A DNA stretch of 32,000 bases from Hymenobacter glaciei (GCF_039539585.1 NZ_BAABDK010000010.1:1-32000), one strand, 5' to 3'; shown: positions 3,235 to 19,713, counted from the first letter of the stretch. Numbers and translations: made by a program. The notes: generated by a model from the letters alone, not told the origin.

Positions 3235-3301
3235 CCCTCGGCGTCGTAGGCCAGGCGGGTTTCGCGGCCGTCGGGCTTGCGCAGGGCCACTACCTGGCTC
3301 A
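3235..3301. repeat. 67-bp direct repeat, distal copy (cassette boundary)
   Basis: ccctcggcgtcgtaggccaggcgggtttcgcggccgtcgggcttgcgcagggccactacctggctca matches 6180-6246 at 63/67 positions by my count. The GC-rich to AT-rich switch occurs immediately after it, at 3302/3303. Confidence 0.85.
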
Positions 3302-3305
3302 TATG

Positions 3306-3851: not shown

Positions 3852-3871
3852 GGTTTACTGAATTTACTCTG

Positions 3872-4177: not shown

Positions 4178-4192
4178 GAGTGTCGTTTGCTT

Positions 4193-4579: not shown

Positions 4580-7500
4580 TAGGCCTAAAACGTCTAGCCA
4601 ATTTTGAGTATTTTTTACGTACGCATATAGTCTTCCGCCACCCCACAATCTCAGAGGGTCCTGGCTGATATAGGTTCCGGCTTTAGGGTCATAATAACGA
4701 AAACGGTTATAATATAGCCCCGTTTCAGTGTCTTCGTATTGCCCTTGATAGCGGAATGGACAATCTTGGGGTTGTCCTTTACCTTGCCGTATAGCGCCGT
4801 AGGCATCAAATTGGGCCTCCCAAGTTGCATTGCCGTGTTGGTCATACATTGCCATTGGCGTCCCTAAATGGTCGCATACAACACTTTGGTTGTCGTTCGC
4901 CCTAAGCTTAGCGGTAAGCGCATGCGAATTCTCCTCAAATAGCCATGTAGCAAGCTCCTGCACTGCGGGATTCTTGTTACATGTCTCCAACTGTTGCCAT
5001 TCGTGCAGTGGCTTACTGCCGTCCCATACCCATCTAGTTGTCACACCCCTATAGTTTTTACTAACACGTCGCCCCAGTGCGTCATAAGTAAACGTAACCG
5101 CATAGCCACTTGGTAGGATTACAGCCACCAGTTGCCCCTTTGGACCCCAGGTATAGTGCCAAATATCGCCGCTTTGCGTCACCTTCCGTACGAGATTACC
5201 CTCATCATCGTAATGGTAACGTGTCCCTTCCGCTTCGCGCAACTGGCCGCCGGCTGCATAGCGGCGGTCCTTGCAAGTGGATGAGCGAAATAAGTTGCCT
5301 ACCGCGTCGGTTAGCCGTACGTCTTGGTCGCCGTTTGCGTAATGGGAACCAATGAGCGCGCCACAAGCATCATAAGCATAACGTGAGGTGCCCAGGTCGT
5401 TACTATCGTCAATGGCTGCTAATTGGTCAAGTCCCTCCCATTGATAACGCCGCTGCCGGGTGCTGCCCTTTCCTACAACATGCTGCTGTGTTGGGCGCCC
5501 CAATTGGTCGTGCTGCCAACCTACACGCACACCTCCACTGAGAGTTCGCTGCAATTCCTTACCGCAGGCATCATGAAATAAATTGGCTTGCCACTTTTCG
5601 TTAGCTTCTACGGTTGCCAACCGCCCAAGGGAGTCATGCTGCCAAGCAAAGCATGCACCCAGCGAGGAGCTTAATGCTGTGCGCTGACCGCGCAAGTCGT
5701 AATTACTTACAACCGTATGTTCGCCTTGTTGCTCTTTCACCACACGCCCCAGTGTATCGCGCTCAAACCGAATAGTAGTGGAATCGTTACGAGCTTCAAG
5801 CAGTTCTCCATTAGCTTCGTAGGTAAAGTGTTCGCTGGTGTCATCATCAAAACGCACTTCTATAATTCGTCCAGCAGCATCATAGCTATAAGTAGTGATG
5901 CAGCCATTGGCACGATGAGCAGTTACCACTCGACCGGTAGCATCCCGCTTGTAGCGGCGCAATAAGCCGTCGAAACCTTCTTCTGTCACCACCCTGCCTG
6001 CAGCATTAAGGCCAAAGCTGTAGCGCTGCCCATATTCATTTGTACAGCCTATAAGGCGGGCCTGGCGGTCATATGCAAAGTGCAGTTCCTGTCCTGCTTG
6101 ATGCCGTACTGCTAAACGATTCACTGCAGTATACTTAAATGCTGCTTCAAGATTGTCGGTTCGCATCAACAGCACATTTCCCTCGGCGTCGTAGGCCAGG
6201 TGGGTTTCGCGGCCGTCAGGCTCGCGCAGGGCCACTACCTGGCCCAGGCGGTCGTAGCGGCGGTGTTGCGTGTGGCCCAGCGCGTCCGTTGACGCCACCA
6301 GGCGGCCCAGCGCGTCGTAGGCGCGCGAGCGGATACTCTCGTCGGGGGCCACCACGTGGGCCAGGTTGTGCTGGCCGTCGTAGCGCAGGCGCGTGGCGTG
6401 GCCCAGGGCATCGGCTAGCTCCACGGTCCGGCCCTGCGCGTCGTAGCGGTAGCGCGTCGTGGCGCCGGTCGGGTCGGTTTTTTCGGCCAGCTGCCCGGCC
6501 TCGTTGTAGGCCCACTGCCAGGCGCTCCCGCCCGCGTCGGTGCCCTGCACGGGCCGGTCGCGGTCGTCGAACGCCGTGCGCTCCTGCCCGCCGTCGGGGT
6601 AGGCCACGGCGGTGCAGTTGCCGCGCGCGTCGTAGGTATAGGTAGTGGTGTGGCCCAGCGGGTCCTGCACGGCTTCGAGCTCGGCGTAGACGTTGTAGCG
6701 CCAGTGGTGCTGGGCCCCAAGCGGGTCGATGTGGGTCGTGACCAGGCCCTGCTCGTGGTAGTACACATCCACGGCGGCCGGGTCATCGGTGTAGAGCGTG
6801 GTGCAGCCGGGCTCGTACACGAAGCGTCCGTTGTAGTAGTTCTCGTCGCCCCAGGTGCGCGTGCAGCGGCCCAGCGCGTCGTATTCGTAGTAGTAGGACG
6901 TGCCCTCGGCGAAGGTTTTGCGCACCAGCCGGTTTCCCTCGAAGTGGAACTGGCGGGTGTGGCCTTCGGCGTCGCTCATCTGGGTCATGTGGCCCGCCTC
7001 GTCATAGGCATACCGCACGGCGACGAAACTGCCGGCCGAGCCGTCGGGATGGGGCAGGCTCACCGTCAGCATCCGGCCCTGGGCATCGGTGGTAATGCCA
7101 ACGGGCCGCCCCACGCTGTCGACAAGGCGTTGCAGGTGGCCCCGCTCGTCGTAGTCAAACCGAACCGCGTGCCCGTAACCGTCGGCAATTGCCGTCAGGC
7201 TGTACTGTTCCGGTTGCGCCACGGATGGCACAAACCGGTAGGTAAGCTGTTCAATGGTGCTGTACACTTCGTAGCCATCAAGCCCCCCGGGAGCCGGGCG
7301 AAGCTCTAGTTTACGGCCGCGGTGGTAGCTGCAGTGGTCATTCTCCGGGGCGGGAGCATCAAAAACGGCCAGGCGGCCGTCGCCCAGGCGCATGGCCACG
7401 GTACCCGTACTGGCCTCGGGCCACAGGGCCAGGTCGTAGCGGTGGTGCCAGCCGTAGCCCAACGGGCCTTTTCTTTCCGAAGTCGAGTACCAGGTGCGCT

Positions 7501-8497
7501 CCCAAATTACCGGTACCGGGCCGGGGAGCGTGAAGTCGACCGAATCAAAAAACATCGCTCCCGAAGCCACGTCAACTGGGTCGTTGCGGCCCGTACATTT
7601 GGTTTTTTCCGCACCTGGCGTGGTTTCGAGCTTTTGAGCACCGGCTACTTCCTCCACCCGACCGCCAATTTCATTCGCCTTGGCTTCAATTACCTTGGCC
7701 CCGAACAACACCACCAAATCGCTGGCCAGAACCAGGCCATTCGCCAGGGTAGGCTTTTTATAAAAGGCAAAGGCATCGGCCGCCGTGGCTATGCCAAACA
7801 TGGCCCCTGATGCTTCCATCAAGGCTAGTGAAGCCGGCCCGCCGGCCACGGCCGCCGCACCGCCCACGGCCCCCATTGCTGCTCCTATCAGTAGCCCGCC
7901 GGCCGCGCCTTTCACGGCCCCCATGGTGCCGCCGTGCGCGTAGCCTTCCATGCCGCCGGCTACGGCACCCACGCCACCCCCGATTACAGCTCCTGTAGCT
8001 GCAGCACCTAGCACCAGGGGCAGGGCTGCTCCGCCCGTAGCAACTACCACGACCACGGCCACCGCAATTGCCGCGAAGAAAAGCAGGCCGGCTTGTGCTT
8101 TCGCCTCTTCGGCCACCTTCTTTGCAGCGGCCTCCTGCTGGTCGTCGGCCAGGGCCTGGGTAACGGCGGCCCGGGTAAAGAAAATATCAATTTTGCCACC
8201 CAGCGTACAAGGCAAAAAGGAGTCGTCCATCAGCGGGTTCTGGGGCATGCCCATGGCCACGATTTTGGTGCTGCCCAGCAGCGGGTTTTGCCAGCGCACG
8301 GTGGCCGGCACGCACGGCGCGTGCGTGATGGCGCACAAGCCGAAAGAGGTGACGTTCACCAGGGGCAGGGCGTCGCTTTCCACGGCCCATTTCTCGTCGT
8401 AGAGGTTGGGGCCGGGGCGCATAATTTGCAGCCGGCAGGGCGTCACTCCTTTGTCACACTTCAGGAATACGTTGGCGGGAACGTGCTTCTTGCTCAT
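4193..8497 (-). CDS. rhs: T6SS Rhs-family polymorphic toxin with an N-terminal PAAR-like (DUF4280-like) domain, a Gly/Ala-rich hydrophobic region, YD/RHS repeats and a 128-aa C-terminal toxin tip
   Basis: 1434-aa ORF. N-terminus MSKKHVPANVFLKCDKGVTPCRLQIMRPGPN...FGLCAI...LPCTLGGKIDI resembles DUF4280 PAAR-like domains. Aa ~135-245 are Gly/Ala-rich hydrophobic. There are many YD repeats (RYAYDEAGHM, YTYDARGN, RYRYDAQGR, YSYDAAGR). The core ends ...FRYYDPKAGTYISQDPLRL...NWLDVLGL. The gene is compositionally chimeric: 6180-8497 is GC-rich and 4193-6179 is AT-rich. Confidence 0.9.
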   Translation of the reverse strand: MSKKHVPANVFLKCDKGVTPCRLQIMRPGPNLYDEKWAVESDALPLVNVTSFGLCAITHAPCVPATVRWQNPLLGSTKIVAMGMPQNPLMDDSFLPCTLGGKIDIFFTRAAVTQALADDQQEAAAKKVAEEAKAQAGLLFFAAIAVAVVVVVATGGAALPLVLGAAATGAVIGGGVGAVAGGMEGYAHGGTMGAVKGAAGGLLIGAAMGAVGGAAAVAGGPASLALMEASGAMFGIATAADAFAFYKKPTLANGLVLASDLVVLFGAKVIEAKANEIGGRVEEVAGAQKLETTPGAEKTKCTGRNDPVDVASGAMFFDSVDFTLPGPVPVIWERTWYSTSERKGPLGYGWHHRYDLALWPEASTGTVAMRLGDGRLAVFDAPAPENDHCSYHRGRKLELRPAPGGLDGYEVYSTIEQLTYRFVPSVAQPEQYSLTAIADGYGHAVRFDYDERGHLQRLVDSVGRPVGITTDAQGRMLTVSLPHPDGSAGSFVAVRYAYDEAGHMTQMSDAEGHTRQFHFEGNRLVRKTFAEGTSYYYEYDALGRCTRTWGDENYYNGRFVYEPGCTTLYTDDPAAVDVYYHEQGLVTTHIDPLGAQHHWRYNVYAELEAVQDPLGHTTTYTYDARGNCTAVAYPDGGQERTAFDDRDRPVQGTDAGGSAWQWAYNEAGQLAEKTDPTGATTRYRYDAQGRTVELADALGHATRLRYDGQHNLAHVVAPDESIRSRAYDALGRLVASTDALGHTQHRRYDRLGQVVALREPDGRETHLAYDAEGNVLLMRTDNLEAAFKYTAVNRLAVRHQAGQELHFAYDRQARLIGCTNEYGQRYSFGLNAAGRVVTEEGFDGLLRRYKRDATGRVVTAHRANGCITTYSYDAAGRIIEVRFDDDTSEHFTYEANGELLEARNDSTTIRFERDTLGRVVKEQQGEHTVVSNYDLRGQRTALSSSLGACFAWQHDSLGRLATVEANEKWQANLFHDACGKELQRTLSGGVRVGWQHDQLGRPTQQHVVGKGSTRQRRYQWEGLDQLAAIDDSNDLGTSRYAYDACGALIGSHYANGDQDVRLTDAVGNLFRSSTCKDRRYAAGGQLREAEGTRYHYDDEGNLVRKVTQSGDIWHYTWGPKGQLVAVILPSGYAVTFTYDALGRRVSKNYRGVTTRWVWDGSKPLHEWQQLETCNKNPAVQELATWLFEENSHALTAKLRANDNQSVVCDHLGTPMAMYDQHGNATWEAQFDAYGAIRQGKGQPQDCPFRYQGQYEDTETGLYYNRFRYYDPKAGTYISQDPLRLWGGGRLYAYVKNTQNWLDVLGLIPVYRNLRPNENPAEGLSAKNPGRGMSPAGHVRNGSNANFKGSQYISTTTDPEVAAKWRAEGQTTVTFDTNNVVPDSHGNRSIVDLTTPEKAAEAGVKGPARNYAINSQEVLVEGHVPADKITKISPC
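6180..6246. repeat. 67-bp direct repeat, proximal copy (recombination junction inside the rhs gene)
   Basis: 63/67 identical to 3235-3301. It marks the point where the rhs gene switches from GC-rich (above 6180) to AT-rich (below 6180) while the protein stays Rhs-like. Confidence 0.85.
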
Positions 8498-8499
8498 GG

Positions 8500-9363
8500 T
8501 CAGGCGGGCTGTTGTACCACGACGTCGTGGATGGTCGAATTGTGGTAGATGCCGGCTACCTCGGCGCGCAGCACTTGTTGCGCATGTAGCAGCGCGCCAG
8601 AAGCCGCGTCGAACGTGTGGGCCCCGGTGCAGTCAATTTCCAGGTCCACCGGAAATTTGAAGTCGTCGACCAGGTCCCGAATCATGCGGCGGAAGTCCTC
8701 GTGCGCAAATGCTGCGTCGTCGAGCGCGCCGGTAGTCGTCACGTGTAGGTTGGCCGGGCCAGTAGGGGCTCCTGCGGCCGGAAGGCCTTGCTGGCTGGTC
8801 AGCAGCAAGGGCAAATCGAGCGTGTTGAAGAACCCGGTTATGCGCCGGCTCGTGAGCACAGCCGGCTCCTGCGGGCCATACGCATACCCGTAGAGGCCTG
8901 GCAGCAGCGCGCCCAGTACACCCTTGTAGCGCAGGTTGGGCTCGAGGCTGCCCGGAATGGCCAGCTGCTGGCCAAAAGCCTCAAAGAAGGGTTTTACTTC
9001 GGGCTGAGCCTCGTATTTCTTCAGTAGCGGCTGGCGTAGCAGCTCCCACTCAGCTAGCACCTGTTCCTGGTTTTCGACCCGCAGCAGGTTCCCGTGCAGG
9101 TCGGTTTGCACCAGCAGCCGGCGGCTGGCCTGGTTCACATCGGCTACCACCCGGCTCATCAGGTCATCGGCCTTCTGCATGGTGTGCTGCACATTGATTT
9201 CGAGCAAATAGCCAAGCCCCTGCGCGGGGTGCAACTGCTGTTCGACAACGTACAGCAGTTCGTTTTCAAATTTTCGCTCTCCCACCTGAATAGCGGTGGT
9301 GGTACGCAACTGGTAGCGTAGCGGGGCCGAGTGATTCTGGGCCAGTAACAACGGTTTGGACAT
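8500..9363 (-). CDS. Hypothetical 287-aa protein between vgrG and rhs; candidate effector adaptor/chaperone
   Basis: ATG ORF with host-like GC. Its stop at 8500-8502 lies 2 nt before the rhs start codon at 8495-8497, and it starts 56 nt after the vgrG stop. No TM segment, signal peptide or recognisable domain. The call is positional only. Confidence 0.35.
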   Translation of the reverse strand: MSKPLLLAQNHSAPLRYQLRTTTAIQVGERKFENELLYVVEQQLHPAQGLGYLLEINVQHTMQKADDLMSRVVADVNQASRRLLVQTDLHGNLLRVENQEQVLAEWELLRQPLLKKYEAQPEVKPFFEAFGQQLAIPGSLEPNLRYKGVLGALLPGLYGYAYGPQEPAVLTSRRITGFFNTLDLPLLLTSQQGLPAAGAPTGPANLHVTTTGALDDAAFAHEDFRRMIRDLVDDFKFPVDLEIDCTGAHTFDAASGALLHAQQVLRAEVAGIYHNSTIHDVVVQQPA

Positions 9364-9419: not shown

Positions 9420-11231
9420 TTAGTGAACCTTGGTGTCGCTTGATTGCAGCGTCGCCTTCGAGCCGCCGTGCAGGGCCAGTTCGGTATTTGACTGGACTGT
9501 GGCTTTGGATGTGCCCACAACCAGTACCTCCTTCGCCGTGAGGGACATTTTATCCTTCGCAGCATCCACAGATACGCCCTTGTTTTTGGCGGCAATTTTC
9601 ACATCGTCCTCGGCCACCATGGTGATGGTCTTGGCGTGCATCTTAATCTCGCCTTTCTCGCCTGCCTCGAGCGTAATGACTGAGCCGTTGACCGTGACCG
9701 GCCCCTTGCTGTGGATGTGCACGCTGCCATCGCCCTTAAAGCTGACCGACACCGCCGTGTCCTTGTTGTTGGAGTTGGAAAGCAAAATCGTCTGCTCGCC
9801 CTTCTTATCCGACATCACCACCTTGTTGCCGCCGGCCGTTTGCATGCCTTTGAGGTGGTTGTCGGGCGTGCTGTACTTGGCGCCCTGTTTGTTCTGCGGG
9901 TGAAACAAGTTGCCGAGCACCACGGGGAAATCGGCCAAGCCGTGCTCGTAGCCCACGAGTACCTGCGAGCCTTTTTCGGGCGTGAACATCTGGCCTTTGC
10001 CGTCGCCTGAATAGGGCGTACTCACGCGCACCCAGCCGGTTTCGGCGTCGGCGGGTTTTGCTACCGGCCAGTAATAGCGCACCCGGATGCGGCCTAGGTG
10101 GCGTGGGTCGGCCAAGTCAATTACCTCGGCGAGCTCGGGCTGCGCATCCGAAGCAGGGTAGAGTGGGTTGGCCGGTGCGGCGGGGGCCGCGTCGGGCATG
10201 GCCTCAAAGTGGTTGCTGTAGTTACCATCCCCATCCACTTCGTGGCGCACGGCTAGCACCCGAAATTTGCCGTAGGCAGCGCCCGCGGCGTCCTGCACGT
10301 CGAGCACGCTGCCCGGTACCATATCGAAGGTTTCCCCGCTGCCTTCCAGGCTCACCTGGTTGCCAGCCCGCTTAGCAGCCAGCCCATCGATGGCGCGCTG
10401 CAACTGGGCCTGGTCGTTCAGCTGGGTGCCGGCCTGCAGCCGGTGCGGCTGCGAGAATAGCTCGTCGGACTTTTGCACTGCAAACTGGCCAAACGGGTGC
10501 CCCGCCGTGGGTGCCGCCGCCTTTGTTTTTAGGGGCTGGTGGGTGCGGTAGTTGTAGTGTGCGCCTTCGGCCTTGCCCGGCTGCAGGTGCATCGAGAGCG
10601 TGAATACCTGCGCACTGCTGCTCTTGAATGAAATGGATTTGCCCGCGCCCTGGCCCAGCCGCAAGGTGGTGCCGTCGTAGTACAGCCACTCGCCCTGCTG
10701 CGCCGCCAGCCGACTCAGGAAGTTGAAGTTGGTTTCGTTGTACTGCACCACGTACGGCAGTACATCCTGGCTTTGGGCCTTGAGCTGCTTTTGCAGCGGG
10801 TTGCCGGGATAATCGCCCAGCACCTGCGTGAAAATGGCCTGCAGTGACTTCTTCACAAACGTGCGGCTCTGCGTACCGTCTTCCAGCAGAAAGGTGGGGC
10901 TATAGCCACTCACGTGGTAATAGTTCACCAAGTCGGCATCGGTTTGGATGCTAACGTGCGTGATAATGCCCTTGAACTCGAACGAGCGGCCGCCGTTGTC
11001 CGGCATGTTACTCGTCCAGCCAATGGTGATGTTCTTGCCGCTTAGCTTCTGGTGGGCCTGAGTAAACAGGGTTTCTGGCTTGAGACCAAGGGCCTTACCT
11101 AGGGCCTCGAACGAAAAGTCGAGTGCGAACGAATGGTGCGTGAGCACGTGCTGGCTTAGCGTGAGCTTGTTGTAGTCGGCAAGGGTAGTGCCACCATCAA
11201 CATGCACGCTAACGTTTACTGGATAGGACAT
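9420..11231 (-). CDS. vgrG: T6SS spike protein VgrG (TssI)
   Basis: 603 aa with gp27/gp5-like layout typical of Bacteroidota VgrG. The N-terminal region is MSYPVNVSVHVDGG...YNKLTLSQHVLTHHSFALDF. It has the RIRVRYYWP motif and a C-terminal beta-helix-like repeat region (KVVMSDKKGEQTILLSN...VHIHSKGPVTVNGSVITLEAGEKGEIKMHAKTITMVAEDDVKI). Confidence 0.9.
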   Translation of the reverse strand: MSYPVNVSVHVDGGTTLADYNKLTLSQHVLTHHSFALDFSFEALGKALGLKPETLFTQAHQKLSGKNITIGWTSNMPDNGGRSFEFKGIITHVSIQTDADLVNYYHVSGYSPTFLLEDGTQSRTFVKKSLQAIFTQVLGDYPGNPLQKQLKAQSQDVLPYVVQYNETNFNFLSRLAAQQGEWLYYDGTTLRLGQGAGKSISFKSSSAQVFTLSMHLQPGKAEGAHYNYRTHQPLKTKAAAPTAGHPFGQFAVQKSDELFSQPHRLQAGTQLNDQAQLQRAIDGLAAKRAGNQVSLEGSGETFDMVPGSVLDVQDAAGAAYGKFRVLAVRHEVDGDGNYSNHFEAMPDAAPAAPANPLYPASDAQPELAEVIDLADPRHLGRIRVRYYWPVAKPADAETGWVRVSTPYSGDGKGQMFTPEKGSQVLVGYEHGLADFPVVLGNLFHPQNKQGAKYSTPDNHLKGMQTAGGNKVVMSDKKGEQTILLSNSNNKDTAVSVSFKGDGSVHIHSKGPVTVNGSVITLEAGEKGEIKMHAKTITMVAEDDVKIAAKNKGVSVDAAKDKMSLTAKEVLVVGTSKATVQSNTELALHGGSKATLQSSDTKVH

Positions 11232-11356: not shown

Positions 11357-11556
11357 CTTTTCCGTACTGTGCTGTACCTTGCCCCCGAACCAACCTTCCT
11401 TTCCATGAATCCAGGTTTTCAAGAAGGGCGTCGGCCGCGGGCCAACGCCGTGGCTTCGTTGGCCCATACCGGCCACGCGAGCCCCTGAGCCGCCGGCCTA
11501 GCATCGGCGCGGTAGCGCACGCGCCCAGCCTTACTGGGCGGCCGGGACCGCGGCCG
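11357..11556 (+). repeat. Conserved leader, copy A (upstream of module A); 88-bp core at 11388-11475 identical to 13482-13569
   Basis: Direct comparison with 13451-13639 shows the core is 88/88 identical, with recognisable but mismatched flanks. A 1-nt indel (agcccct vs agccccct) changes the reading frame between copies, arguing that it is non-coding. It contains a perfect 9-bp hairpin, gggccaacg-ccgtggctt-cgttggccc, at 11439-11465. Confidence 0.8.
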
Positions 11557-12702
11557 ATGTCGGCCCGTCAAACTACCGCTGTTAACCAATGGAATGCCGC
11601 GACAAAGCGCGTGGTAGCCCAGTTCTTGCGGGATGCGCAAAACACGTCGCGCCAGCGTGCGTTCAACCGTGAAAACGCTGCTGCCGAAGCAGAGTGGTCG
11701 GACCGAGCTACCAAACGCGCGTGGGAAAGCAAGCTTTTTCCCAGCTATGACCCCCGTGGGGGCAATGCGTACGGCGTTGACGTGGCGGATACCGGTGGTT
11801 GGGCCACCGGTTATCACGGACACAAATTCGGAGAAATGTGGGTGTACATCCGCGTGAAGGGACACCACAATACGCTGGAATACGCCGTGCTGAACCCCCA
11901 GACCGGTAACCTGTTCGTGTTTACACCGGAGGCTGCTTTGGCTCCCCCAAACCGGGTTTACATGTCGGAGGCTGACCAAGTGCGGAGTACGGCATCGGGT
12001 ACGGGGGTAGCAGGAGGCTACCTTGAAAAAGGCTTTATGGGCCTCTCAGTAGGCATAATGGCCGCTCCGCTCGTGCTTGCCGCTTCAGAAACAGCCGTTG
12101 GCGGAATAGTTATCACGGGCTTCCGCACCCTGGGAATGCAAATGGTCAAGCAATTCACTTGGAGTACGTTCCGGCAAAAGGTTTTTACCGACCTCTTTGT
12201 GCAAAGCGCAGCAGGCACTCTGAAGAACGGAGCCGATTGGAAAAAAACAGCAGGCGAAATCAACTTGACTGCACCTCTTGTTGCGTGGCTCTTGCCAGGC
12301 TCAACGTGGTCCGCTGCTGCCCGTAATAGCATAGTCAAGGCTACCTTGAAAGCCAATACGACCATTGATGAGGAAAACAACATTAGCTTCAGGGTGCAGT
12401 TGCCTCACCTGGATTCCATGGAAGGGTTTGCTAAATATTTGACTGACATCGGTACTGATGCCGTGGCTACCATGGCTAAGGCCAAATTAGTAACCGGTGC
12501 CATACCAGCCGCACGCTGGGCTTCGCAAGCCATGCAGCGCACAGGCACTGCTGCCGGCCGTTGGATTGCTGCGCAGCGAGTAACCCTAGGAACGTGGGGC
12601 ACCATCGGCACAAGCGTGGTGAGCAAAGTGGCCAAAGACCAGGAAAAGAAGCGAATGACAGACCGCGTTGAGAAGCCTTCCCCCGCTCATCCGCGCCAAT
12701 GA
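11557..12702 (+). CDS. Module A gene 1: hypothetical ~381-aa protein with a soluble N-terminal region and a hydrophobic Gly/Ala-rich C-terminal part; candidate T6SS cargo effector
   Basis: I trimmed ORF 11317..12702 to the ATG at 11557 (MSARQTTAVNQW...) because the upstream extension lies in the non-coding conserved leader. It is a paralogue of 13640..14809, sharing the block ASGTGVAGGYLEKGFMGLSVGI vs AAGTGVVGGYMEKGFLGVSAGM and the N-terminal MSA(R/Q)Q. No family recognised. Confidence 0.6.
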   Translation: MSARQTTAVNQWNAATKRVVAQFLRDAQNTSRQRAFNRENAAAEAEWSDRATKRAWESKLFPSYDPRGGNAYGVDVADTGGWATGYHGHKFGEMWVYIRVKGHHNTLEYAVLNPQTGNLFVFTPEAALAPPNRVYMSEADQVRSTASGTGVAGGYLEKGFMGLSVGIMAAPLVLAASETAVGGIVITGFRTLGMQMVKQFTWSTFRQKVFTDLFVQSAAGTLKNGADWKKTAGEINLTAPLVAWLLPGSTWSAAARNSIVKATLKANTTIDEENNISFRVQLPHLDSMEGFAKYLTDIGTDAVATMAKAKLVTGAIPAARWASQAMQRTGTAAGRWIAAQRVTLGTWGTIGTSVVSKVAKDQEKKRMTDRVEKPSPAHPRQ

Positions 12703-13220
12703 AACTGCCCACGATGCGGATAAAAAGCTTGCTGCTCACGATTGGGCTGTTGGGATTTGTGGGCGTCTATGCCTACTATCTCTATCGTACCCGTGAAGGG
12801 CTCATGCACCGGGGCAAGTACACCATTGGGTATGTGACAGGGGCTGCGCTAACGGTCGGTAGCGGTTGGACCCTCGAGTACCGCTTCGAAGTGAACGGCG
12901 AAACTTATACCGGCTCACGCAGAGAGGAGAGCAAGACAAATACTGCTGTCGGGGCTCGCTATCTGGTAAAATACGATAGCCTTTCTCCGGACTGGCACCA
13001 AGTGTACTACGAAGCATCGGTGCCGGACAGCATTCGGCAGGCCCCACGCAATGGTTGGCGCCACCGTCCCTGGCCCGACCCGGCGCATCCCGAGGCTTCC
13101 GCCCCGCAACCAGCGGCCCGGCCGGCGCGCAGTTCGGCCGAGGCGGCCATGTGGCGCGAGATGGACGCAACCCAAGCGTCGGCCGATTCGCTTGAGGCCC
13201 GCGCGCGCCGCGCGCCGTGA
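12699..13220 (+). CDS. Module A gene 2: small protein with an N-terminal TM anchor (DUF3592-like appearance); candidate immunity protein
   Basis: Its ATG overlaps the gene 1 stop (ATGA at 12699-12702). It has a TM helix (SLLLTIGLLGFVGVYAYYLY). It is a paralogue of 14806..15249, sharing RGKYTIGYVTG / RARYTIGYITG, YRFEVNGETY / YRFAVKGKEY, GARYLVKYDSLSPD / GARFLVEYDSLDPE and SVPDSI. Confidence 0.6.
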   Translation: MKLPTMRIKSLLLTIGLLGFVGVYAYYLYRTREGLMHRGKYTIGYVTGAALTVGSGWTLEYRFEVNGETYTGSRREESKTNTAVGARYLVKYDSLSPDWHQVYYEASVPDSIRQAPRNGWRHRPWPDPAHPEASAPQPAARPARSSAEAAMWREMDATQASADSLEARARRAP

Positions 13221-13450
13221 GTGACTGCGGCGGACTTTGCAAGCACCAGTAGAACCCAATCAATTTTCATTCTCAACCGCACCAGAAGGCATGTAAGATG
13301 GCTGCTAGAGCAAGCTGCGGTTTATCAGCATAGTTGCTGGGCACCGAGCCGTAGCCACGGGTTAATGACCGGGCAAGGCGTCCAGACAGAGGGTAGAGAA
13401 GAGCTTCTAGGGCTACGGGCAGTCCCATCGAGCTGCCGTACGGTGGAATT

Positions 13451-13639
13451 CTTTCCAGTACTATGCAGTAACTTGCCCCAAAACCAACCTTCCTTTCCAT
13501 GAATCCAGGTTTTCAAGAAGGGCGTCGGCCGCGGGCCAACGCCGTGGCTTCGTTGGCCCATACCGGCCATACAAGCCCCCTAAGCCGCCGGCCCAGCATC
13601 GGGACGGTAGCGCACGCGCACAGGCCAGGACCCCAGCCC
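13451..13639 (+). repeat. Conserved leader, copy B (upstream of module B)
   Basis: See copy A. The identical core is 13482-13569 and the hairpin is 13533-13559. Confidence 0.8.
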
Positions 13640-14809
13640 ATGTCAGCTCAGCAGGTTGCGAGCATAAATGCTGCCCACAGCAATACAAAGCGCGCAGTAA
13701 ACCAAGTTGTTCAACTCACGAAAGAAGAAGCTTGGCGCCTGAACTCTGATGCTCGGCTGCGCCAGCAAATGGAGCGCCTGCCTTACTCAGCGTACGACGC
13801 TAATACAGTTGACCCCAGTGCTAAAAAGGATGTGGTTGACGAACATGATAATCCGCTAGGGCAGGAGCGTTATGTGATAGGGCATCTTTGGGTGTTTGCC
13901 AGCACGCTCAATGATGCATTTGGCACACGCAAGTACTGGGTATACAATACCAAAACCCAGGTATTGGTGTCGTTCGAGCCAGAACATGGCATAGCAGCCA
14001 AAAACCGGACGTATATGCCGGCAAACGCCCAGTTTAGGAACATGGCTGCCGGCACGGGCGTGGTGGGGGGCTATATGGAAAAAGGATTTCTGGGCGTAAG
14101 TGCGGGCATGCTCACCGGAGGTCTGATTTACGAGATAGGTGGCGTTGCAGTGGTAGGCACTGCTATCCGCGCCTATCTAGTGAAAACCGCTAAAGGTGCC
14201 GGCACACGGATATTGGTTGATTTGACTACGCAGTTTGGCGTCGGTGCGGTAACCGGCAAAGGCTCATGGAGTCAACGCGCGCAAGCGTCTTTCATGGACA
14301 TAAACTGGGTTTCGGCGCTTGGAGCAGCAGCAGTAAATACTGAGGGTTTGCGCTGGCATGCCAAGTTACTGGCTGCTTTTGGTACTTCTGTTGGGTCCAA
14401 TGCTTATTCCTTCAAATTCAACAATGAGGAAAAATACCATAGCCCGGGGCATATGGTAAATATAAACGATGCCAAGGAAAGCAAAGATTTTGTCATCAAT
14501 GTTATTTTAGGCACCGTGTTCGACCAAGCCAAGGAATATGGCGCCCCGTGGCTCGAAAAGGTAATGCGCAGCACCCCCAACACGATGGGCATGTTAACGG
14601 CATTGAAACACCGCCGGGTGGTGCCGCGCTTAAGTGCCAGCAAAGTTGACCAAAGTATGGTGGCAGTTCTTAGCTATCACATGGGCGGGGCCATGGAAAC
14701 CATCAAAAAAGGAGTTGAAAACTACTTTGCCGACAAGCAAGAGCAACAGGAGGCGGCCAAAAAAGCGGCGCTGCGGAAAAAAACAGCTGCGCGGCCGAGT
14801 AAGCCATGA
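13640..14809 (+). CDS. Module B gene 1: hypothetical ~389-aa paralogue of 11557..12702; candidate T6SS cargo effector
   Basis: I trimmed ORF 13499..14809 to the ATG at 13640 (MSAQQVASINAAH...) by analogy with copy A. It has the same conserved hydrophobic block and a lower GC than the T6SS core genes. Confidence 0.6.
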   Translation: MSAQQVASINAAHSNTKRAVNQVVQLTKEEAWRLNSDARLRQQMERLPYSAYDANTVDPSAKKDVVDEHDNPLGQERYVIGHLWVFASTLNDAFGTRKYWVYNTKTQVLVSFEPEHGIAAKNRTYMPANAQFRNMAAGTGVVGGYMEKGFLGVSAGMLTGGLIYEIGGVAVVGTAIRAYLVKTAKGAGTRILVDLTTQFGVGAVTGKGSWSQRAQASFMDINWVSALGAAAVNTEGLRWHAKLLAAFGTSVGSNAYSFKFNNEEKYHSPGHMVNINDAKESKDFVINVILGTVFDQAKEYGAPWLEKVMRSTPNTMGMLTALKHRRVVPRLSASKVDQSMVAVLSYHMGGAMETIKKGVENYFADKQEQQEAAKKAALRKKTAARPSKP

Positions 14810-15249
14810 GTCGTTTTTTTACCTGGGCTCGTAAATATTTAGTGTATCTGGTCATCGGCATTTGCTTGGCTGGCGGGTGGTATGGCATGCGGGCCAAGCA
14901 AACGATGCATACCCGGGCCCGTTATACCATTGGATACATCACTGGCGGGATATACCGACCCAAAAGTGGCAAAAGCTATAGCTACCGCTTTGCGGTAAAG
15001 GGCAAAGAATATGAGGCTACCGATATCAGCGAGGCTGGAATGGAAACGGAGAACGGCGCACGATTTCTGGTCGAATACGATAGCCTAGACCCGGAGGTAA
15101 GTACTGGGCATTTTACCGTTTCTGTGCCTGATAGTATAGCTGCTAGCCCACCCAGTGGCTGGATTATTCCCCCTTTCCCTAATAAGGCCATAGGCCATCC
15201 GATGAGGCTAAGCCAGCCGAGTGGACATCTTTTCCGGATAATTTTATGA
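14806..15249 (+). CDS. Module B gene 2: small TM-anchored paralogue of 12699..13220; candidate immunity protein
   Basis: ATGA start/stop overlap with gene 1 (14806-14809). TM helix YLVYLVIGICLAGGWYGM. The conserved motifs are listed under 12699..13220. Confidence 0.6.
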   Translation: MSRFFTWARKYLVYLVIGICLAGGWYGMRAKQTMHTRARYTIGYITGGIYRPKSGKSYSYRFAVKGKEYEATDISEAGMETENGARFLVEYDSLDPEVSTGHFTVSVPDSIAASPPSGWIIPPFPNKAIGHPMRLSQPSGHLFRIIL

Positions 15250-15758
15250 GGAAGTTATTGTTCGCCACCTCACTACTGGTGGCTTGTTCTGCGCCCACAG
15301 CACCACAAAGCGGTGTAGCAGAAATGGAAGCACCAGTGGCCGACAAGCACGATGCCTTGTTGGCCGCCAAAACAGGATATGACGGGCACCATTTGGGCGA
15401 CTCGCTGAGTCGCTTCACCATTTCCTCGCTAAAGCTGGTGCCCCGGCTGTGGCCGGCAGTGATGTATACGGTGCCGAGCCATACGCTACGCCTTGATACA
15501 ATTCCACTCAGCGGCATCAGCTACGAGTTTTGGCACGGCAAACTCTACCAAATCGATTTCAATTCCCGGCACTCGGGGCTGCTTGAAGCCGGCAAAATGA
15601 TGTATGGCCCAGGCGAGCAGGTTAGCCCCACCGAGTACCGTTGGCAGGGCCAACACAGCTCGGCAAGCTATACCACAAATGGCCCAATAAACTACCTGCG
15701 GGTTTTCGATAACGCAGCAGCTATACAGGTAGACTCAGCCGTCGCAACCGCACAGTAG
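15246..15758 (+). CDS. Putative lipoprotein (170 aa), translationally coupled to module B
   Basis: MRKLLFATSLLVAC has a signal peptide with an L-V-A-C lipobox. Its ATG overlaps the preceding stop (ATGA at 15246-15249). No family recognised. Confidence 0.6.
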   Translation: MRKLLFATSLLVACSAPTAPQSGVAEMEAPVADKHDALLAAKTGYDGHHLGDSLSRFTISSLKLVPRLWPAVMYTVPSHTLRLDTIPLSGISYEFWHGKLYQIDFNSRHSGLLEAGKMMYGPGEQVSPTEYRWQGQHSSASYTTNGPINYLRVFDNAAAIQVDSAVATAQ

Positions 15759-15841: not shown

Positions 15842-16246
15842 TTAACGCGTCTGTGCCCAAGTACTGTCGCGCTCCACGGTGCCGAGCACTAGCTTGGCGG
15901 CCGAGAGCTGCAGGGTGCAGCGGTAAGCACCTGCAGACTCGGCTCCGGAGCGAAAGTCCTCTTGGTAGGACACGCAGAAGGCATCTTCGAACTCGAGCTG
16001 CTCGCTGAACGTGGGGCGGTTGGTTTCCAGAAAGAGCAGGGTGCCGCCCAGTTTCTTTTGCGGGTCGGTGGCCCAGGCCAACAGTTGGTCGTCGTGGGGC
16101 ACGTCGAGTTCGAGCGTGATGAGGCCGCTGCGCACTTTGGCCGCTACCCGGCCGCGCTGGGCGGTAGGTTGGCTAAATTGGTAAGCACAGTGCACAACGG
16201 GTAACTCCTGCCCAGCGAGCAGGAGAAGGCAGCGGAAGGAAGACAT
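15842..16246 (-). CDS. hcp: Hcp/TssD tube protein paralogue (134 aa), same subfamily as the N-terminus of the Hcp-lipase fusion
   Basis: It has the length and pattern of Bacteroidota TssD. It shares RGRVAAKVRSGLITLELDVPHDDQLLAW...AGAYRCTLQLSAAKL with the fusion protein (RGRTAAKVRHGLVHLALDVPDDDLLLDW...AGAYVCNLVVSATRL). Confidence 0.8.
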   Translation of the reverse strand: MSSFRCLLLLAGQELPVVHCAYQFSQPTAQRGRVAAKVRSGLITLELDVPHDDQLLAWATDPQKKLGGTLLFLETNRPTFSEQLEFEDAFCVSYQEDFRSGAESAGAYRCTLQLSAAKLVLGTVERDSTWAQTR

Positions 16247-16265
16247 GATGGGCCGGGCTAAAAAG

Positions 16266-16661
16266 TTAAACAGGCCACTTGTTGTCGAGCGTGACCTCGC
16301 CGCTGCTCAGCTTGTTCGCCGATACAGTGAGCGTCATCGTCATGCCTTGGGCAGAGCCCGAACCATCAAAATTCTTGCTCAGGCCCACGCAATAGGCTTC
16401 TTCGAACCGAATGGTTTTACGACGGGCCAGGCGGTTGGCAGCGGAGAATACCACGAGCTCACCGCTCATTTGCTTGGTGTCGTCCAGAGCCCAGTGCTGA
16501 ACCGTTTCGTCGGGTTCCGAGTCGAGCTCGACCATGAGCTGGCCGCCCTGCACGCGGGCATCGGGCCGGCCCACGGCGTCGGTGTTTTGTTGCACGCCCC
16601 AGTTGAACCGGCGGACGGTGTAGCTTTTGTTGGCGAGAATAAGCGCAGCGCTGAATGCCAT
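16266..16661 (-). CDS. hcp: Hcp/TssD tube protein paralogue (131 aa)
   Basis: I trimmed ORF 16266..16736 to the ATG at 16661 (MAFSAALILANKSYTV...). It aligns along its whole length with the hcp at 27133..27534 (GRPDARVQGGQLMVELDS vs GRPSSVVQGGVIKVTIVS; FEEAYCVGLSKNFD vs FKEAYCVGYTETFD; TVSANKL vs VISANKV). Confidence 0.8.
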   Translation of the reverse strand: MAFSAALILANKSYTVRRFNWGVQQNTDAVGRPDARVQGGQLMVELDSEPDETVQHWALDDTKQMSGELVVFSAANRLARRKTIRFEEAYCVGLSKNFDGSGSAQGMTMTLTVSANKLSSGEVTLDNKWPV

Positions 16662-16797
16662 ATAGTGGAAGGAGGAAAGTGGACGGGAAAGAACCGGCTG
16701 CAAGGTACGTAAAGCCGGCGCTATAGTCTCGCCCACCCGAGCTGGTCGCTGCGGGCCGGTTTGCCGCCTGCCCGCCCATCTGCTACCTTCGCCCCCT

Positions 16798-17223
16798 ATG
16801 AGTGCTTCGTACTACCACTTGCCGCTCGACCTGGAAGGAATTCTGGAACGCCAGCATTTGCCCCGGTGCTCGGTGCAGGAATCCATTGCCCAGCACCTCT
16901 ATCTGATGCTGACGACGTATTTCGGCGAGTCGCGCTACGAGCCTGACTTTGGCTGCCAGGTGTGGGAGCAGGACTTCGAAGCCATGACGACCATGCGCTG
17001 GAAGGACAACGTGCAACGCTCGATTGAGGAGTCCATTGGCGAGTACGAGCCGCGCCTGGCCCGGGCCCGTGTCGATGTTTCCGTGTCCGACTTCGAGCTG
17101 AAAAACGTGCAGCAGCGCATCCGCAAGCGGCTCGAAGTGAAGGTGAGCGCCGCGCTCCACCGCACCGACGAGCCGTTCCAGTTTCAGGCCAGCTTATTCG
17201 TGGCGCCGCTGTCGGTCGACTAG
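16798..17223 (+). CDS. tssE: T6SS baseplate protein TssE (GPW/gp25-like)
   Basis: 141 aa. The sequence SIAQHLYLMLTTYFGESRYEPDFGCQVWEQDFE...IEESIGEYEPRL is typical of gp25/TssE-family proteins. The gene sits directly upstream of tssF. Confidence 0.8.
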   Translation: MSASYYHLPLDLEGILERQHLPRCSVQESIAQHLYLMLTTYFGESRYEPDFGCQVWEQDFEAMTTMRWKDNVQRSIEESIGEYEPRLARARVDVSVSDFELKNVQQRIRKRLEVKVSAALHRTDEPFQFQASLFVAPLSVD

Positions 17224-17250: not shown

Positions 17251-19149
17251 TTGTCCGTGCTACATCCCGTTTCCTTTCCTTCGCCTACCAGCACCGATTT
17301 CCGCAAATCCAGCGTCAAAAGCCGGCTCACCCGCCAGGCCGCCGAGCTGTGGGGCTACACCGAAGCCGACCTCGACGGCTTCGACCCCTTGGTAAACCTG
17401 CTGCTCGAAGCCTGCGCCGTCGAGTTCGAGAAAGTAGGGCAGGAGCTCCACAACACCCAATACCGGCTGATTGAGCGCCTCGCTACCCTGCTCAACCCCG
17501 ACGTGGTGGACGCCCCGCACCCGGCCCATGCCATCGCGCAGGCCCAGGCCCGCGAGCCCCTGGTGATGCTGCCCGACGACGCGCAATTCGTGTTTGAGCC
17601 ACCCACGGCCGGCCGTCGCGTGGCGGGGCAGGAGCTGTTTTTTTCGCCCCTGCAAAACACCCGCCTGGTAGGTGGCGCCGTGCGCGCCCTAGCCACCGAT
17701 TCAATGGTTTGGCTAATAGAGCCCGGCGGCCAGAAGCGCCCGGTAGCGCAGGCGTTGGCCCCACCGCCTGCCACGCACCGCCGCCTCTGGGTTGGCCTGC
17801 AACTGCCGACGGAAGGCGTTGAGCTAACGGATTTGACGTTCTATTTCGACTGGCTAAACGAGCCGCGTCGTGCGGCCTACATGGCCTTTTTGCCAGGTGA
17901 AGAGTGGCGGTTGGGCAATACCTTGCTAACTCCCGTGCCGGGCCTGCCCGAAGCGGCCACTACGCCCGGAGCCACTGGTCTGCCCGACGGCCTCAACCGC
18001 GAATACGATTTCCTGCAGCGTGCCGAGCAGCATGTGCGCGAGGTGTATGCCCCGGCTTTTGTGCGGCTGCAGGCCCCGGTGGGTGCGTTGGCGGCCTACG
18101 TGCCGCGCCCGTACCCGGCCGAGCTGGCTACTGCTTTCCCTGCCCCGGCCACCGAGCTCCAGGGGCTCACGCAGCCGTTGGTATGGCTGGAGGTACGCTT
18201 TGCGCACGCGCTGCCGCCCGAGGCATTCGACCAGCTGGTGTGCGCGCTCAACTGCTTTCCGGTGCTGAACCGCCGGTTGCACAAGGTATTGTTCCGGTTG
18301 CAGCCGGCCCTCAACCTGTTCCCATTGGCCAGCGACGAGCCCTTCCTGGCCGTGCGCGACATCTACAGCCTGAGCAACGTCGCCTACCGCTCCACCACGC
18401 TCAGCGACTTGTCCGATGGCGCGACCGATACCTACACCCTGCGTACCCACGGCGTGGGGCGTTTCGACACCCGCACGGGGCGCGAGGCCCTGCGCGAGCT
18501 GCTGGAGCTGCTGCGCGACGAAAGCCGGGCCTTCACCGCTGCCGGTACCGATTTCATCGGCACCATTCTGCGCGAGCTCGACCAGAACCTGGCCCGCCTG
18601 GAAGAACGCCTCGACCGCAACCGCGCCGCCGAACAGCCGGTGCCCTACGTGCTGCTACGCCCCCAGAACGTGAACGACAGCGTGTACCTCGAATACTGGT
18701 CGAGCAACGGCGAAACTGCCAACCGCCTGGCCGCCGGCAGCCGCCTGCGCGTGCACGACAGCCATTATGTTGATGAAGTGCGCCTGCTCACGACCACCAG
18801 CGGCGGCCGTGAGCGCCCCCGCCCCGAAGAGCGCACCCACGCCCTGCGCCGCAACCTGCTGGCCCGCAACCGCCTCGTCACGCTGGCCGACATCAAAGCC
18901 GCCTGCTGGGCCGAGCTGGGCACGCACCTGGCCGCCATCGAAGTCACCAAGGCCTTCCAGACGGGCGCCACGCCTACTGCCGGCTTCGTGCGCTGCATGC
19001 GCATCAGCCTCACGCCGTCCGAGCCCAGCCGTCTGAGTGCCCCGGAGTGGCAGCGCGCTGCTCACGAGCTGCAAACCACGCTGGCCAGCCAGTCGGCTAT
19101 GAACCTGCCCTACGAGGTGGTGGTGAAACAAGTAGGAGTGGGGGTATAG
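17251..19149 (+). CDS. tssF: T6SS baseplate protein TssF
   Basis: 632-aa ORF immediately after tssE, with size and position typical of TssF. There is no ATG near the 5' end, so the start is probably TTG at 17251 or GTG at 17257. The assignment rests on context and general resemblance, not on a checked alignment. Confidence 0.7.
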   Translation: MSVLHPVSFPSPTSTDFRKSSVKSRLTRQAAELWGYTEADLDGFDPLVNLLLEACAVEFEKVGQELHNTQYRLIERLATLLNPDVVDAPHPAHAIAQAQAREPLVMLPDDAQFVFEPPTAGRRVAGQELFFSPLQNTRLVGGAVRALATDSMVWLIEPGGQKRPVAQALAPPPATHRRLWVGLQLPTEGVELTDLTFYFDWLNEPRRAAYMAFLPGEEWRLGNTLLTPVPGLPEAATTPGATGLPDGLNREYDFLQRAEQHVREVYAPAFVRLQAPVGALAAYVPRPYPAELATAFPAPATELQGLTQPLVWLEVRFAHALPPEAFDQLVCALNCFPVLNRRLHKVLFRLQPALNLFPLASDEPFLAVRDIYSLSNVAYRSTTLSDLSDGATDTYTLRTHGVGRFDTRTGREALRELLELLRDESRAFTAAGTDFIGTILRELDQNLARLEERLDRNRAAEQPVPYVLLRPQNVNDSVYLEYWSSNGETANRLAAGSRLRVHDSHYVDEVRLLTTTSGGRERPRPEERTHALRRNLLARNRLVTLADIKAACWAELGTHLAAIEVTKAFQTGATPTAGFVRCMRISLTPSEPSRLSAPEWQRAAHELQTTLASQSAMNLPYEVVVKQVGVGV

Positions 19150-19248
19150 GCCCGCAGAACCGGAATGCGTAAGCCATGTTAAAATTGCTGCTGATTTTGG
19201 GCGGGGTGGGTGTCGCTGCGCTGGGCAGCTTGGCTTGGATAGTGGCCA

Positions 19249-19713
19249 TTGGCACAGCCAGTGCTGGTGTGGCGCTACGAGTATCCCACTCAGGAGCTGC
19301 GCACCGATTCAGCCGGTCAGTTGGTTATCAAGGGATACGAAGCGTTTACCACTAATATTCTTACCGGTCCGCACCGGCCCGATGCCTTTTTGGCGCGACT
19401 GGCTTTTCCTGGCCTGTCACCCTTGTTCTACCGCTTCGAGCTGCGCCACGATGGGCCAGCACCCTACCAAGTTTTCAATACCTCGTACGATTACGACTGG
19501 GGCCACCAATGGGTGGGAGACTTCGATGCTACTGGCCGGGTCCGTAGCCAGACCAAACCCGATAAAACGGGCAAAGTCAATAGCACCGTGCCGCCTACCG
19601 GCGGGCAAACGCAGCTTTGGCAAGCCAATGCTGCCCTGCATCGGCTTGCCAAAGTAAAAACTGGCTCTCACTACGCCATCGAGCTGAACCTGCAGCAAAA
19701 TGGCGTAGAATAG
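19249..19713 (+). CDS. Hypothetical protein downstream of tssF; 5' end unresolved, possibly frameshifted from a signal-anchor ORF starting at 19176
   Basis: This frame is open only from 19243 and starts with TTG or GTG. An ATG at 19176 in another frame, 26 nt after the tssF stop, encodes MLKLLLILGGVGVAALGSLAWIVAIG..., a convincing TM/signal segment. That ORF stops at 19353-19355 (59 aa, below the track cut-off). Confidence 0.4.
   Translation: MAQPVLVWRYEYPTQELRTDSAGQLVIKGYEAFTTNILTGPHRPDAFLARLAFPGLSPLFYRFELRHDGPAPYQVFNTSYDYDWGHQWVGDFDATGRVRSQTKPDKTGKVNSTVPPTGGQTQLWQANAALHRLAKVKTGSHYAIELNLQQNGVE

Follow-up and report, generated by a model that had tools for sequence, protein, structure and literature searches.

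Tandem gene modules between vgrG and hcp in Hymenobacter glaciei are candidate cassettes of an unnamed polymorphic toxin/immunity family

A 32,000-nucleotide stretch of DNA from Hymenobacter glaciei (GCF_039539585.1, NZ_BAABDK010000010.1:1-32000), hereafter the window, contains a locus of the Bacteroidota-type subtype iii of type VI secretion systems (T6SS-iii), in which VgrG, PAAR-Rhs, Hcp, TssE, TssF, ClpV, TssB, and TssC are all present. Beside vgrG lie two tandem modules, A and B, each consisting of a large gene followed by a small gene that encodes a membrane-anchored protein. From comparison of their sequences with those of relatives, we consider it likely that the modules are tandem cassettes of an unnamed polymorphic toxin/immunity family, housed in a variable slot between vgrG and hcp in a few Hymenobacter lineages. 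In such cassettes, toxicity would reside in the C-terminal domain of the large protein, and the small protein would confer the cognate immunity. No description of the protein family, its conserved N-terminal extension, or its junction motif was found in the libraries and literature searched; the kind of system to which they would belong, a T6SS polymorphic effector with immunity and orphan modules, is already well known. The parts of the two modules are as follows (aa, amino acids; TM, transmembrane).

11405-15249, plus strand: the two modules, in the slot between vgrG and the hcp pair
11557..12702, plus strand: large A body, 381 aa counted from an internal ATG; predicted effector, possibly crippled by an upstream frameshift
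11995..12045, plus strand: junction motif of A (SGTGVAGGYLEKGFMGL), a conserved block and recombination breakpoint
12022..12126, plus strand: hydrophobic segment of A, aa 156-190, KD19 maximum 1.77, of helical-hairpin length
12699..13220, plus strand: small A, 173 aa; predicted cognate immunity protein with an N-terminal TM anchor plus beta domain; ATGA overlap
13499..14809, plus strand: large B, full length, 436 aa including the N-terminal extension at 13499-13639; predicted effector
14048..14098, plus strand: junction motif of B (AGTGVVGGYMEKGFLGV), located by motif scan and regional conservation
14090..14191, plus strand: hydrophobic segment of B, aa 198-231, KD19 maximum 1.53
14806..15249, plus strand: small B, 147 aa; predicted cognate immunity protein; ATGA overlap

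The window comes from H. glaciei, with large A matching GCM10022409_09190 at 100% identity and large B being equal to GCM10022409_09210. A preliminary description of this DNA had placed four open reading frames (ORFs) at 11557..12702, 12699..13220, 13640..14809, and 14806..15249, all of which are present as described, and had read them as two paralogous pairs. Alignment confirms the paralogy, with 29% identity over 233 aa between the large proteins (E=2e-23) and 39% over 123 aa between the small ones (E=7e-26). The motifs quoted there for the large and small proteins were all found in the sequences, and the ATGA start/stop overlaps within both pairs are real; small B shares a third such overlap with the gene that follows it at 15246, which encodes a predicted lipoprotein of 170 aa. 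The lower GC content attributed to the region was also recovered, at 0.52-0.60 across the modules versus 0.60-0.68 in the core genes. The gene starts, however, had been mis-set: the true start of gene B is 13499 rather than 13640.

The central proposal of that description, a duplicated and diversified effector-immunity cassette, gains support from the strict gene order, arrays, orphan fragments, a mosaic relative, divergence faster than that of the core genes, and adjacency to vgrG and hcp. Across 12 distinct loci, designated here by L numbers, the large-then-small order is strict, every large gene or fragment in the hidden Markov model (HMM) map being followed by a small gene on the same strand. 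The number and completeness of the units vary. One large gene is accompanied by three small genes in L001, L140, and L015 and by two in L009, whereas L012 holds three tandem modules and L013 two modules plus a lone extension. In L003, a large and a small gene are followed by a fragment starting from VAGGYLEKGF (11734-12552) and another small gene; L004 comprises a large gene, two small genes, a lipoprotein gene, a short fragment (12937-13092), and further small genes. Elsewhere, a C-terminal fragment with a small gene lies in an island of Rhs fragments and an Imm7 gene (L016, L017), a truncated large gene with a small gene lies among transporter genes (L139, from the same genome as L015), and a distant pair lies among housekeeping genes (L138). 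The orphan fragments begin at or just before the junction motif, and each has its own small gene.

Several properties by which polymorphic toxins are recognized were found together: the N-terminal region is conserved and meets a variable C-terminal domain at a junction that is itself conserved, the small gene directly downstream co-varies with the C-terminal domain, and both orphan fragments (L003, L004, L012, L016, L017, L139) and arrays with three small genes (L001, L015, L140) occur. The co-variation is apparent across 10 pairs, in which the identity of residues 1-95 of the small protein correlates with that of the large C-terminal domain (r=0.91) and with that of the N-terminal part (r=0.82). 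A natural mosaic delimits the unit concerned. When module A is compared with L013, nucleotide identity is 80-89% up to about position 12000, 36-67% from about 12000 to 12930, and 77-82% over 12978-13160, whereas identity with L012 is uniform, at 72-92%. At the protein level, the comparison with L013 gives 86% for the N-terminal part, 47% for the C-terminal domain, 48% for small-protein residues 1-95, and 81% for residues 96-135. What is exchanged is therefore the predicted toxin domain and, with it, the 5' half of the small gene; the block is bounded by the GTGV..EKGF motif on one side and the GAR[YF]LV[KE]YDSL block on the other. Divergence also outpaces that of the surrounding machinery, the best large and small matches being 26-75% identical versus 71-88% for VgrG and 80-89% for TssE and TssF.

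The position beside and divergent from vgrG, which had been part of the original argument, holds in the window. All full loci found (L001, L003, L004, L007, L008, L009, L014, and L140) have the cassette in this slot, next to vgrG and hcp, and every full-length large copy sits between the two genes. The divergent vgrG arrangement recurs in L001, L003, L004, L007, L008, L014, and L140, and the hcp pair is likewise conserved in the loci of relatives.

The large protein is built from regions of very different conservation. Mean pairwise identity is 61% in the extension, 34% in a long helix, 35% in a beta head, 62% in the junction motif, 28% in the hydrophobic segment, and 27% in the C-terminal domain, making the extension and the junction motif the two best-conserved parts of the family. 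Whereas the preliminary description had credited each large protein with several long hydrophobic stretches, only one segment of about 35 aa is present, directly after the GTGV[AV]GGY[LM]EKGF block. A hydrophobic segment of 24-46 residues occupies this position in 23 of 24 members, sometimes with a second one. No signal peptide or N-terminal TM helix was found in the large proteins by sequence and hydropathy analysis. Secondary structure in a low-confidence AlphaFold2 (AF2) model of large B is disordered at 1-49, helical at 50-92, beta at 111-159, and all-alpha at 175-427. That the large protein was not recognized in the preliminary description as any named T6SS effector or Tss component agrees with the profile searches, as neither Pfam (E<=0.1-5) nor NCBIfam returned a match; a sequence search of the PDB gave nothing meaningful.

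The small protein carries an N-terminal TM helix in 46 of 52 family members. The AF2 model of small B, built on a 52-sequence alignment (predicted local distance difference test score, pLDDT, 88.7), shows a helix at 2-36, five beta strands at 38-106, and an extended tail; a Foldseek search of this model against the PDB gave only insignificant OB-like or DUF2500-like matches. Of the earlier characterization as anchored, beta-rich, DUF3592-like proteins, the single N-terminal anchor and the beta domain stand, whereas the resemblance to DUF3592 falls below threshold. The small proteins do share with DUF3592 an N-terminal TM helix and a small beta domain, but all small-protein scores lie under the gathering cut-off of the Pfam model (PF12158), at 15.6 and 17.5 bits for the window proteins versus 25.3. 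Weak matches to this model occur in 5 of 12 members (best E-value 8e-4), and the UniRef label reads 'DUF3592 domain-containing'. The small family may be distantly related to DUF3592, a domain noted beside LXG toxins in an unclear role (PMC12482557).

The cassette family is very narrowly distributed. A word-indexed search of 5.8 billion proteins placed the large family in 18 clusters, and an exhaustive profile search of 1.84 billion representatives returned 37 large-family proteins, many of them fragments; the small family, at 63 clusters, is larger. In a scan of genomes from 185,579 species, 4 genomes were recovered, namely those of H. monticola and H. metallicola, a Hymenobacter metagenome-assembled genome (MAG), and a MAG labelled Janthinobacterium lividum, while H. 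cellulosivorans was found via its small protein. Named hosts amount to five Hymenobacter species, the remaining sequences coming from Hymenobacter-like MAGs and metagenome contigs. The MAG labelled J. lividum (L003/L011; JBPBPC010000053.1) carries a Bacteroidota-type T6SS-iii, with Pfam matches to TssN and TssD, together with the Hymenobacter family, and its label looks wrong.

A number of observations weigh against a toxin/immunity reading. None of the full loci examined lacks a large gene, and the same would be expected of a conserved accessory component. Neither a catalytic nor a pore-forming family was detected in the large proteins, and the AF2 model of large B, computed from 16 sequences, has a pLDDT of only 45.6 and is unusable for assigning function by fold, the alignment being limited to the 18 to 37 relatives that exist. 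The single short hydrophobic segment is thin support for pore formation. A match to the Hol44 holin family (PF16079) covers this segment alone, in 4 of 16 members, and a holin relationship was rejected because the best score lies below the cut-off for that family (17.2 versus 29.2 bits). In the small proteins, Lys and Arg residues flanking the TM helix average 1.5 on the N side and 3.2 on the C side, a weak lean toward a cytoplasmic beta domain. Such a location would be out of the ordinary for a protein that protects against a toxin attacking from the periplasmic side. In a search of other proteins with an extension profile, only five short fragments of the same family were retrieved, a weak negative since known full-length members were missed as well; that search showed no fusion of the extension to other toxin families, and a role for it as a general export tag is unsupported.

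Some of these points bear on two other explanations of the pairs. It is unlikely that they are T6SS-independent toxin/immunity or toxin/antitoxin systems (a self-contained, membrane-acting bacteriocin, a holin-like system, or an abortive infection pair) residing in a recombination-prone island. Orphan pairs do occur outside T6SS loci (L138, L139, L016), but the non-T6SS copies are truncated and lack the extension, as expected of orphan remnants, whereas all full-length, extension-bearing copies adjoin vgrG and hcp. A T6SS-independent system would suit the weak holin-like match over the hydrophobic segment and the lack of any recognized T6SS marker or adaptor domain in the Pfam and NCBIfam scans; it fits less well with the absence of a signal peptide or other export signal, and neither PADLOC nor the plasmids searched yielded a match to the family.

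Alternatively, the large and small proteins could be lineage-specific structural or accessory parts of the T6SS-iii, for example substitutes for TssO, TssQ, or TssR, membrane-complex subunits that are reported as missing or unidentifiable in Hymenobacter; we regard this reading as quite improbable. According to a published study, no complete membrane complex of the T6SS-iii is present in the genus, and its place may have been taken by co-option of other genes (PMC10781749); the constant position of a large-plus-small pair in every full locus would accord with such co-option. Among the known components, TssN has five TM helices, TssQ, TssO, and TssP each combine one N-terminal TM helix with a helical or PKD periplasmic domain, and TssR is a lipoprotein (PMC10781749). 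The small protein resembles TssQ, TssO, and TssP in having one N-terminal TM helix followed by a soluble domain, but this domain consists of about 70 aa in five beta strands and is not elongated and helical, whereas the large protein has one internal hydrophobic segment and no N-terminal TM helix. When profiles for the TssN/O/P/Q/R subunits were considered (for example, TssN PF17555), the large protein had no Pfam match, to TssN, TssO, or otherwise, and the small protein only the sub-threshold one to DUF3592; a genuine TssN was found separately in L003. The preliminary description had named placement in a conserved single-copy T6SS-iii structural family, such as a TssN/O/P-type subunit, or in a housekeeping family as an outcome that would overturn it, and no profile placed the large protein in these or any other family, nor is the large protein conserved as a single copy. 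Copy number instead varies from 1-3 large and 1-4 small genes, some copies are truncated or frameshifted, and some pairs are located well away from any T6SS gene, in Rhs/Imm7 islands and housekeeping regions. Cassettes are exchanged as mosaics, and paralogues within one genome are 29-39% identical versus 80-89% for TssE and TssF across species. A substitute for the membrane complex was rejected on these four grounds of copy number, fragments, mosaicism, and divergence rate.

The segment preceding each module, regarded in the preliminary description as a shared leader, proved to be partly what it seemed. Both copies (11357-11528 and 13451-13623) are real, with 89-100% DNA identity over about 175 nucleotides (nt) and an exact match of 47 nt, which none of 100 shuffles reproduced. 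Rather than being non-coding, however, the leader is a translated extension of about 50 residues. Homologues carry the consensus MNPGFQEGRRPRANAVASLAHTGH..PL.RRP....RPGPRP in frame upstream of MSA[RQ]Q, and in gene B the leader is in frame, the large-family HMM matching over its positions 1-448 in a single frame. Over the first 26 codons of eight leader copies from seven loci, the variable columns number 8, 7, and 21 at codon positions 1, 2, and 3, and pairs from different loci differ at 5-13 synonymous versus 2-9 non-synonymous codons. Because the internal Met is replaced by Leu, the upstream ATG must be the start in L003 and P0005; the same replacement occurs in L012 copy 2. A scan of metagenomes with a degenerate DNA pattern for the extension returned at least 120 unrelated stretches, none matching the three HMMs. 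The features of this region are listed below.

11375..11382, plus strand: candidate -7 promoter box of module A (TACCTTGC), from alignment of a TAnnTTG-type box
11405..11488, plus strand: truncated extension of gene A, 27 codons (MNPGFQEGRRPRANAVASLAHTGHASP) followed by TGA; positions 1-27 of the large-family HMM
11482..11556, plus strand: remainder of the gene A extension (PLSRRPSIGAVAHAPSLTGRPGPRP), in the frame of the body; HMM positions 27-446 in the -1 frame from 11482
13469..13476, plus strand: candidate -7 promoter box of module B (TAACTTGC), from the same alignment

It is extremely improbable that the leader is a nucleic-acid element (a 5' untranslated region RNA or a protein-binding DNA site) with the large proteins starting at MSA[RQ]Q: its two copies are indeed 92-100% identical in DNA beside gene bodies only 29% identical in protein, the gene A leader is out of frame with its body, and several gene callers place the start at the internal Met, but differences across loci are mostly third-position (8/7/21) and synonymous, Leu stands in place of that Met in three copies (L003, P0005, and L012 copy 2), no more than about 25-30 nt separate the conserved promoter-like box from the extension ATG downstream of it, and the identity between A and B is accounted for by recent recombination or gene conversion. 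An RNA element in particular was rejected in view of the coding-type codon-position pattern, the lack of any Rfam match to the leader, and a folding z-score of -0.22, no better than shuffled sequence.

The TAnnTTG-type box stands about 23-30 nt upstream of the extension ATG and is conserved in 7 of 8 aligned loci. We take it to be a Bacteroidetes -7 promoter element (consensus TAnnTTTG) and treat it as a candidate only; a scan for sigma-70 promoters and terminators gave counts equal to those in shuffled sequence. The promoter and leader of module B are of the type that stands first after vgrG in L012 and L013 (88-92% identity over -45..+75). This shared type points to recent recombination or gene conversion at the leader junction.

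In gene A, the extension is interrupted. The C-run at 11482-11485 is C4, versus C5 in gene B, so that a 1-nt deletion leaves the body in the -1 frame and the extension ORF ends in AGC CCC TGA. Because a close relative, L012 (87% identical), is in frame at this site, the lesion is confined to this assembly or strain. The second-position copies of L012 and L013 have similar breaks where the extension meets the body, making the extension itself a frequent point of recombination or decay. Lone or broken extension copies lie at 4294-4494 in L013 and 2828-3067 in L012; one starts with CTG, and one has a stop and a gap before the body. The C4 run of gene A could be an assembly error, a pseudogenizing mutation, or a slippage-prone on/off control. 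A -1 slip of tRNA-Pro on C-CCC would rebuild the family consensus ..HASPLSRRPS... With its extension lost to the deletion, gene A may be a silent or non-exported copy whose small protein would still be protective.

Taken as toxin/immunity cassettes, the modules suggest the following mechanism. The large protein would act as an effector with a basic, disordered extension of about 50 residues, a variable long helix, a small beta-sheet head, and the junction motif [AS]GTGV[AV]GGY[LM]EKGF, followed by a hydrophobic segment of hairpin length and a variable, all-alpha, toxic C-terminal part of about 200 residues. The extension may serve as a loading tag onto the T6SS through VgrG or the neighboring Hcp pair, both routes being equally possible. 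Once delivered, the toxin would insert into and permeabilize the cytoplasmic membrane of the target. If the protein is a toxin, membrane permeabilization is its most likely activity, with the chances for and against about evenly balanced; it is suggested by the hairpin length of the hydrophobic segment, the all-alpha make-up of the domain, the anchoring of the immunity protein in the membrane, and the lack of an enzyme motif. The predicted immunity protein would be held in the inner membrane by its one N-terminal helix and carry the five-stranded beta domain, and its N-terminal 95 or so residues (the TM helix and first strands) would set specificity for the toxin domain. Recombination at two conserved junctions, one formed by the extension and its promoter and the other by the GTGV..EKGF motif, could generate new specificities, the toxin domain being swapped as one block with the 5' half of the immunity gene. 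A bolder version, possible but on balance doubtful, is that the extension is a new, sequence-conserved T6SS-iii cargo tag in Cytophagia, recognized by VgrG or Hcp, that it forms a two-junction swapping system with GTGV..EKGF, and that the C-tract frameshift of gene A is an export on/off switch. If such a two-junction system exists, either whole effectors or toxin-immunity blocks alone would be exchangeable.

The remainder of the locus is arranged as follows.

4193-8497, minus strand: PAAR-Rhs gene, with a PAAR(DUF4280)-DUF6531-Rhs architecture
8500-9363, minus strand: 287-aa ORF between vgrG and the PAAR-Rhs gene, without a family match
9420..11231, minus strand: vgrG, with matches to Phage_GPD (3.4e-26) and Phage_base_V (7.7e-18); divergent from module A
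15246-15758, plus strand: 170-aa predicted lipoprotein (MRKLLFATSLLVAC...), with an ATGA overlap with small B
15842-16736, minus strand: two tandem hcp genes, with TssD matches of 9e-26 and 5.5e-33; they bound the slot
16798-17223, plus strand: TssE
17251-19149, plus strand: TssF
19756-20742, minus strand: ankyrin-repeat protein, 328 aa
20739-22139, minus strand: Hcp fusion, 466 aa, with an N-terminal TssD domain and a C-terminal domain without assignment
22211-24838, minus strand: ClpV
24944-25546, plus strand: TssB
25609-26982, plus strand: TssC
27133-27534, plus strand: fourth Hcp

Although translationally coupled to small B, the 170-aa lipoprotein probably stands outside the cassette. It has no Pfam or NCBIfam family match, and copies with 59-67% identity lie directly before the hcp pair in L001, L004, L007, and L008; it may be a lineage-specific T6SS accessory protein. 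On the other side, the position downstream of vgrG held by the 287-aa ORF is taken by an unannotated gene of similar size (278-328 aa) in L003, L004, L007, L008, and L014, and similarity is detectable only to the copies in L003, L009, and L014, at about 30% identity. The 287-aa protein may be a VgrG/Rhs adaptor.

The Rhs side of vgrG (1240-8497, minus strand) forms a second polymorphic-toxin array. It includes a DUF6939 protein at 3306-3851, in a stretch of low GC (0.40-0.48), which is probably the immunity protein of PAAR-Rhs, as well as orphan Rhs fragments at 2595-3302 and 1240-2376; three copies of a direct repeat of 160 nt lie at 82-241, 1741-1900, and 4685-4844. The Hcp fusion and the overlapping ankyrin protein that follows it (19756-22139) are likely an effector/immunity pair, and the equivalent Hcp fusion of H. 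cellulosivorans (L014) matches PF26363, Phospholipase-like. TssE and TssF are present, whereas no gene for TssG, TssK, TssN, or TssP was found within the 32-kb window, and only unannotated ORFs of 140-154 aa (19235-19713) lie downstream of TssF. Since these four genes are missing from the window, the T6SS-iii genes of H. glaciei are split over more than one locus; a split gene set agrees with the published remark that Hymenobacter is without a complete recognizable membrane complex.

To our knowledge, T6SS-iii effectors outside the gut Bacteroidales are almost unknown, and we know of no experimental study of a Hymenobacter T6SS. A family this small (18 clusters among 5.8 billion proteins) would be of limited general importance unless its loading tag or toxin mechanism is new. 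Nevertheless, the determinants of specificity should be easy to map, since the predicted effector is compact (about 435 aa), its predicted immunity protein is anchored in the membrane, the swap junctions are clear, and natural mosaics are available.

Several known systems offer points of comparison. The concept of a junction between conserved and variable parts of a polymorphic toxin is familiar from the PxxxxDPxGL motif of Rhs proteins and the VENN motif of CdiA. Like these, the Hymenobacter family has an N-terminal part that is conserved, a short conserved motif at the junction, a C-terminal toxin domain (here predicted) that varies, and an immunity gene directly downstream; shared features also include orphan toxin fragments that begin near the junction and keep their own immunity gene, as well as cassette replacement by recombination. 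Unlike them, the family is without YD/Rhs repeats, PAAR, or filamentous-haemagglutinin repeats, and the whole protein measures only about 435 aa. Its junction reads GTGV[AV]GGY[LM]EKGF, the swap reaches into the first 95 or so immunity codons, and a second junction lies at the extreme N-terminus.

The extension also recalls the N-terminal domains MIX, FIX, and RIX, which mark T6SS effectors of proteobacteria; RIX is arginine-rich and found in Vibrionaceae. Compared by description, these and the extension, arginine-rich as well, are short conserved N-terminal sequences that mark polymorphic effectors; no sequence relationship is expected, however, and the extension was found only on this family, in Hymenobacter. 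With VasX and Bte2, T6SS-delivered alpha-helical toxins with buried hydrophobic helices and membrane-associated immunity, the likeness is one of general design, as those proteins have at least 850 aa, PF20249, and a C-terminal Ig domain (PMC12718326). The Hymenobacter large proteins, at about 435 aa, with a single hydrophobic segment and no Pfam match, do not belong to that family.

The nearest precedent for a loading tag comes from the variable-region-1 effectors of Bacteroides fragilis GA3 (Bte1, Bfe1, and LysM), which likewise occupy a variable slot beside paired hcp genes (PMC13035841) and join a shared N-terminal module to divergent C-terminal toxin domains. In Bacteroides, it is by an N-terminal loading region that T6SS-iii effectors are brought to a heterohexamer of Hcp2 and Hcp3 (PMC13035841). 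The Hymenobacter modules do adjoin two hcp genes, and by analogy with B. fragilis their large proteins could be loaded onto Hcp, although at about 435 aa they may not fit into the Hcp lumen. The loading regions themselves differ: that of B. fragilis is conserved in fold, with less than 17% sequence identity and a beta-strand pair (PMC13035841), whereas the N-terminal 50 or so residues in Hymenobacter are 61% identical and predicted to be disordered. This conserved extension is a concrete candidate through which the poorly understood selection of T6SS-iii cargo might be approached.

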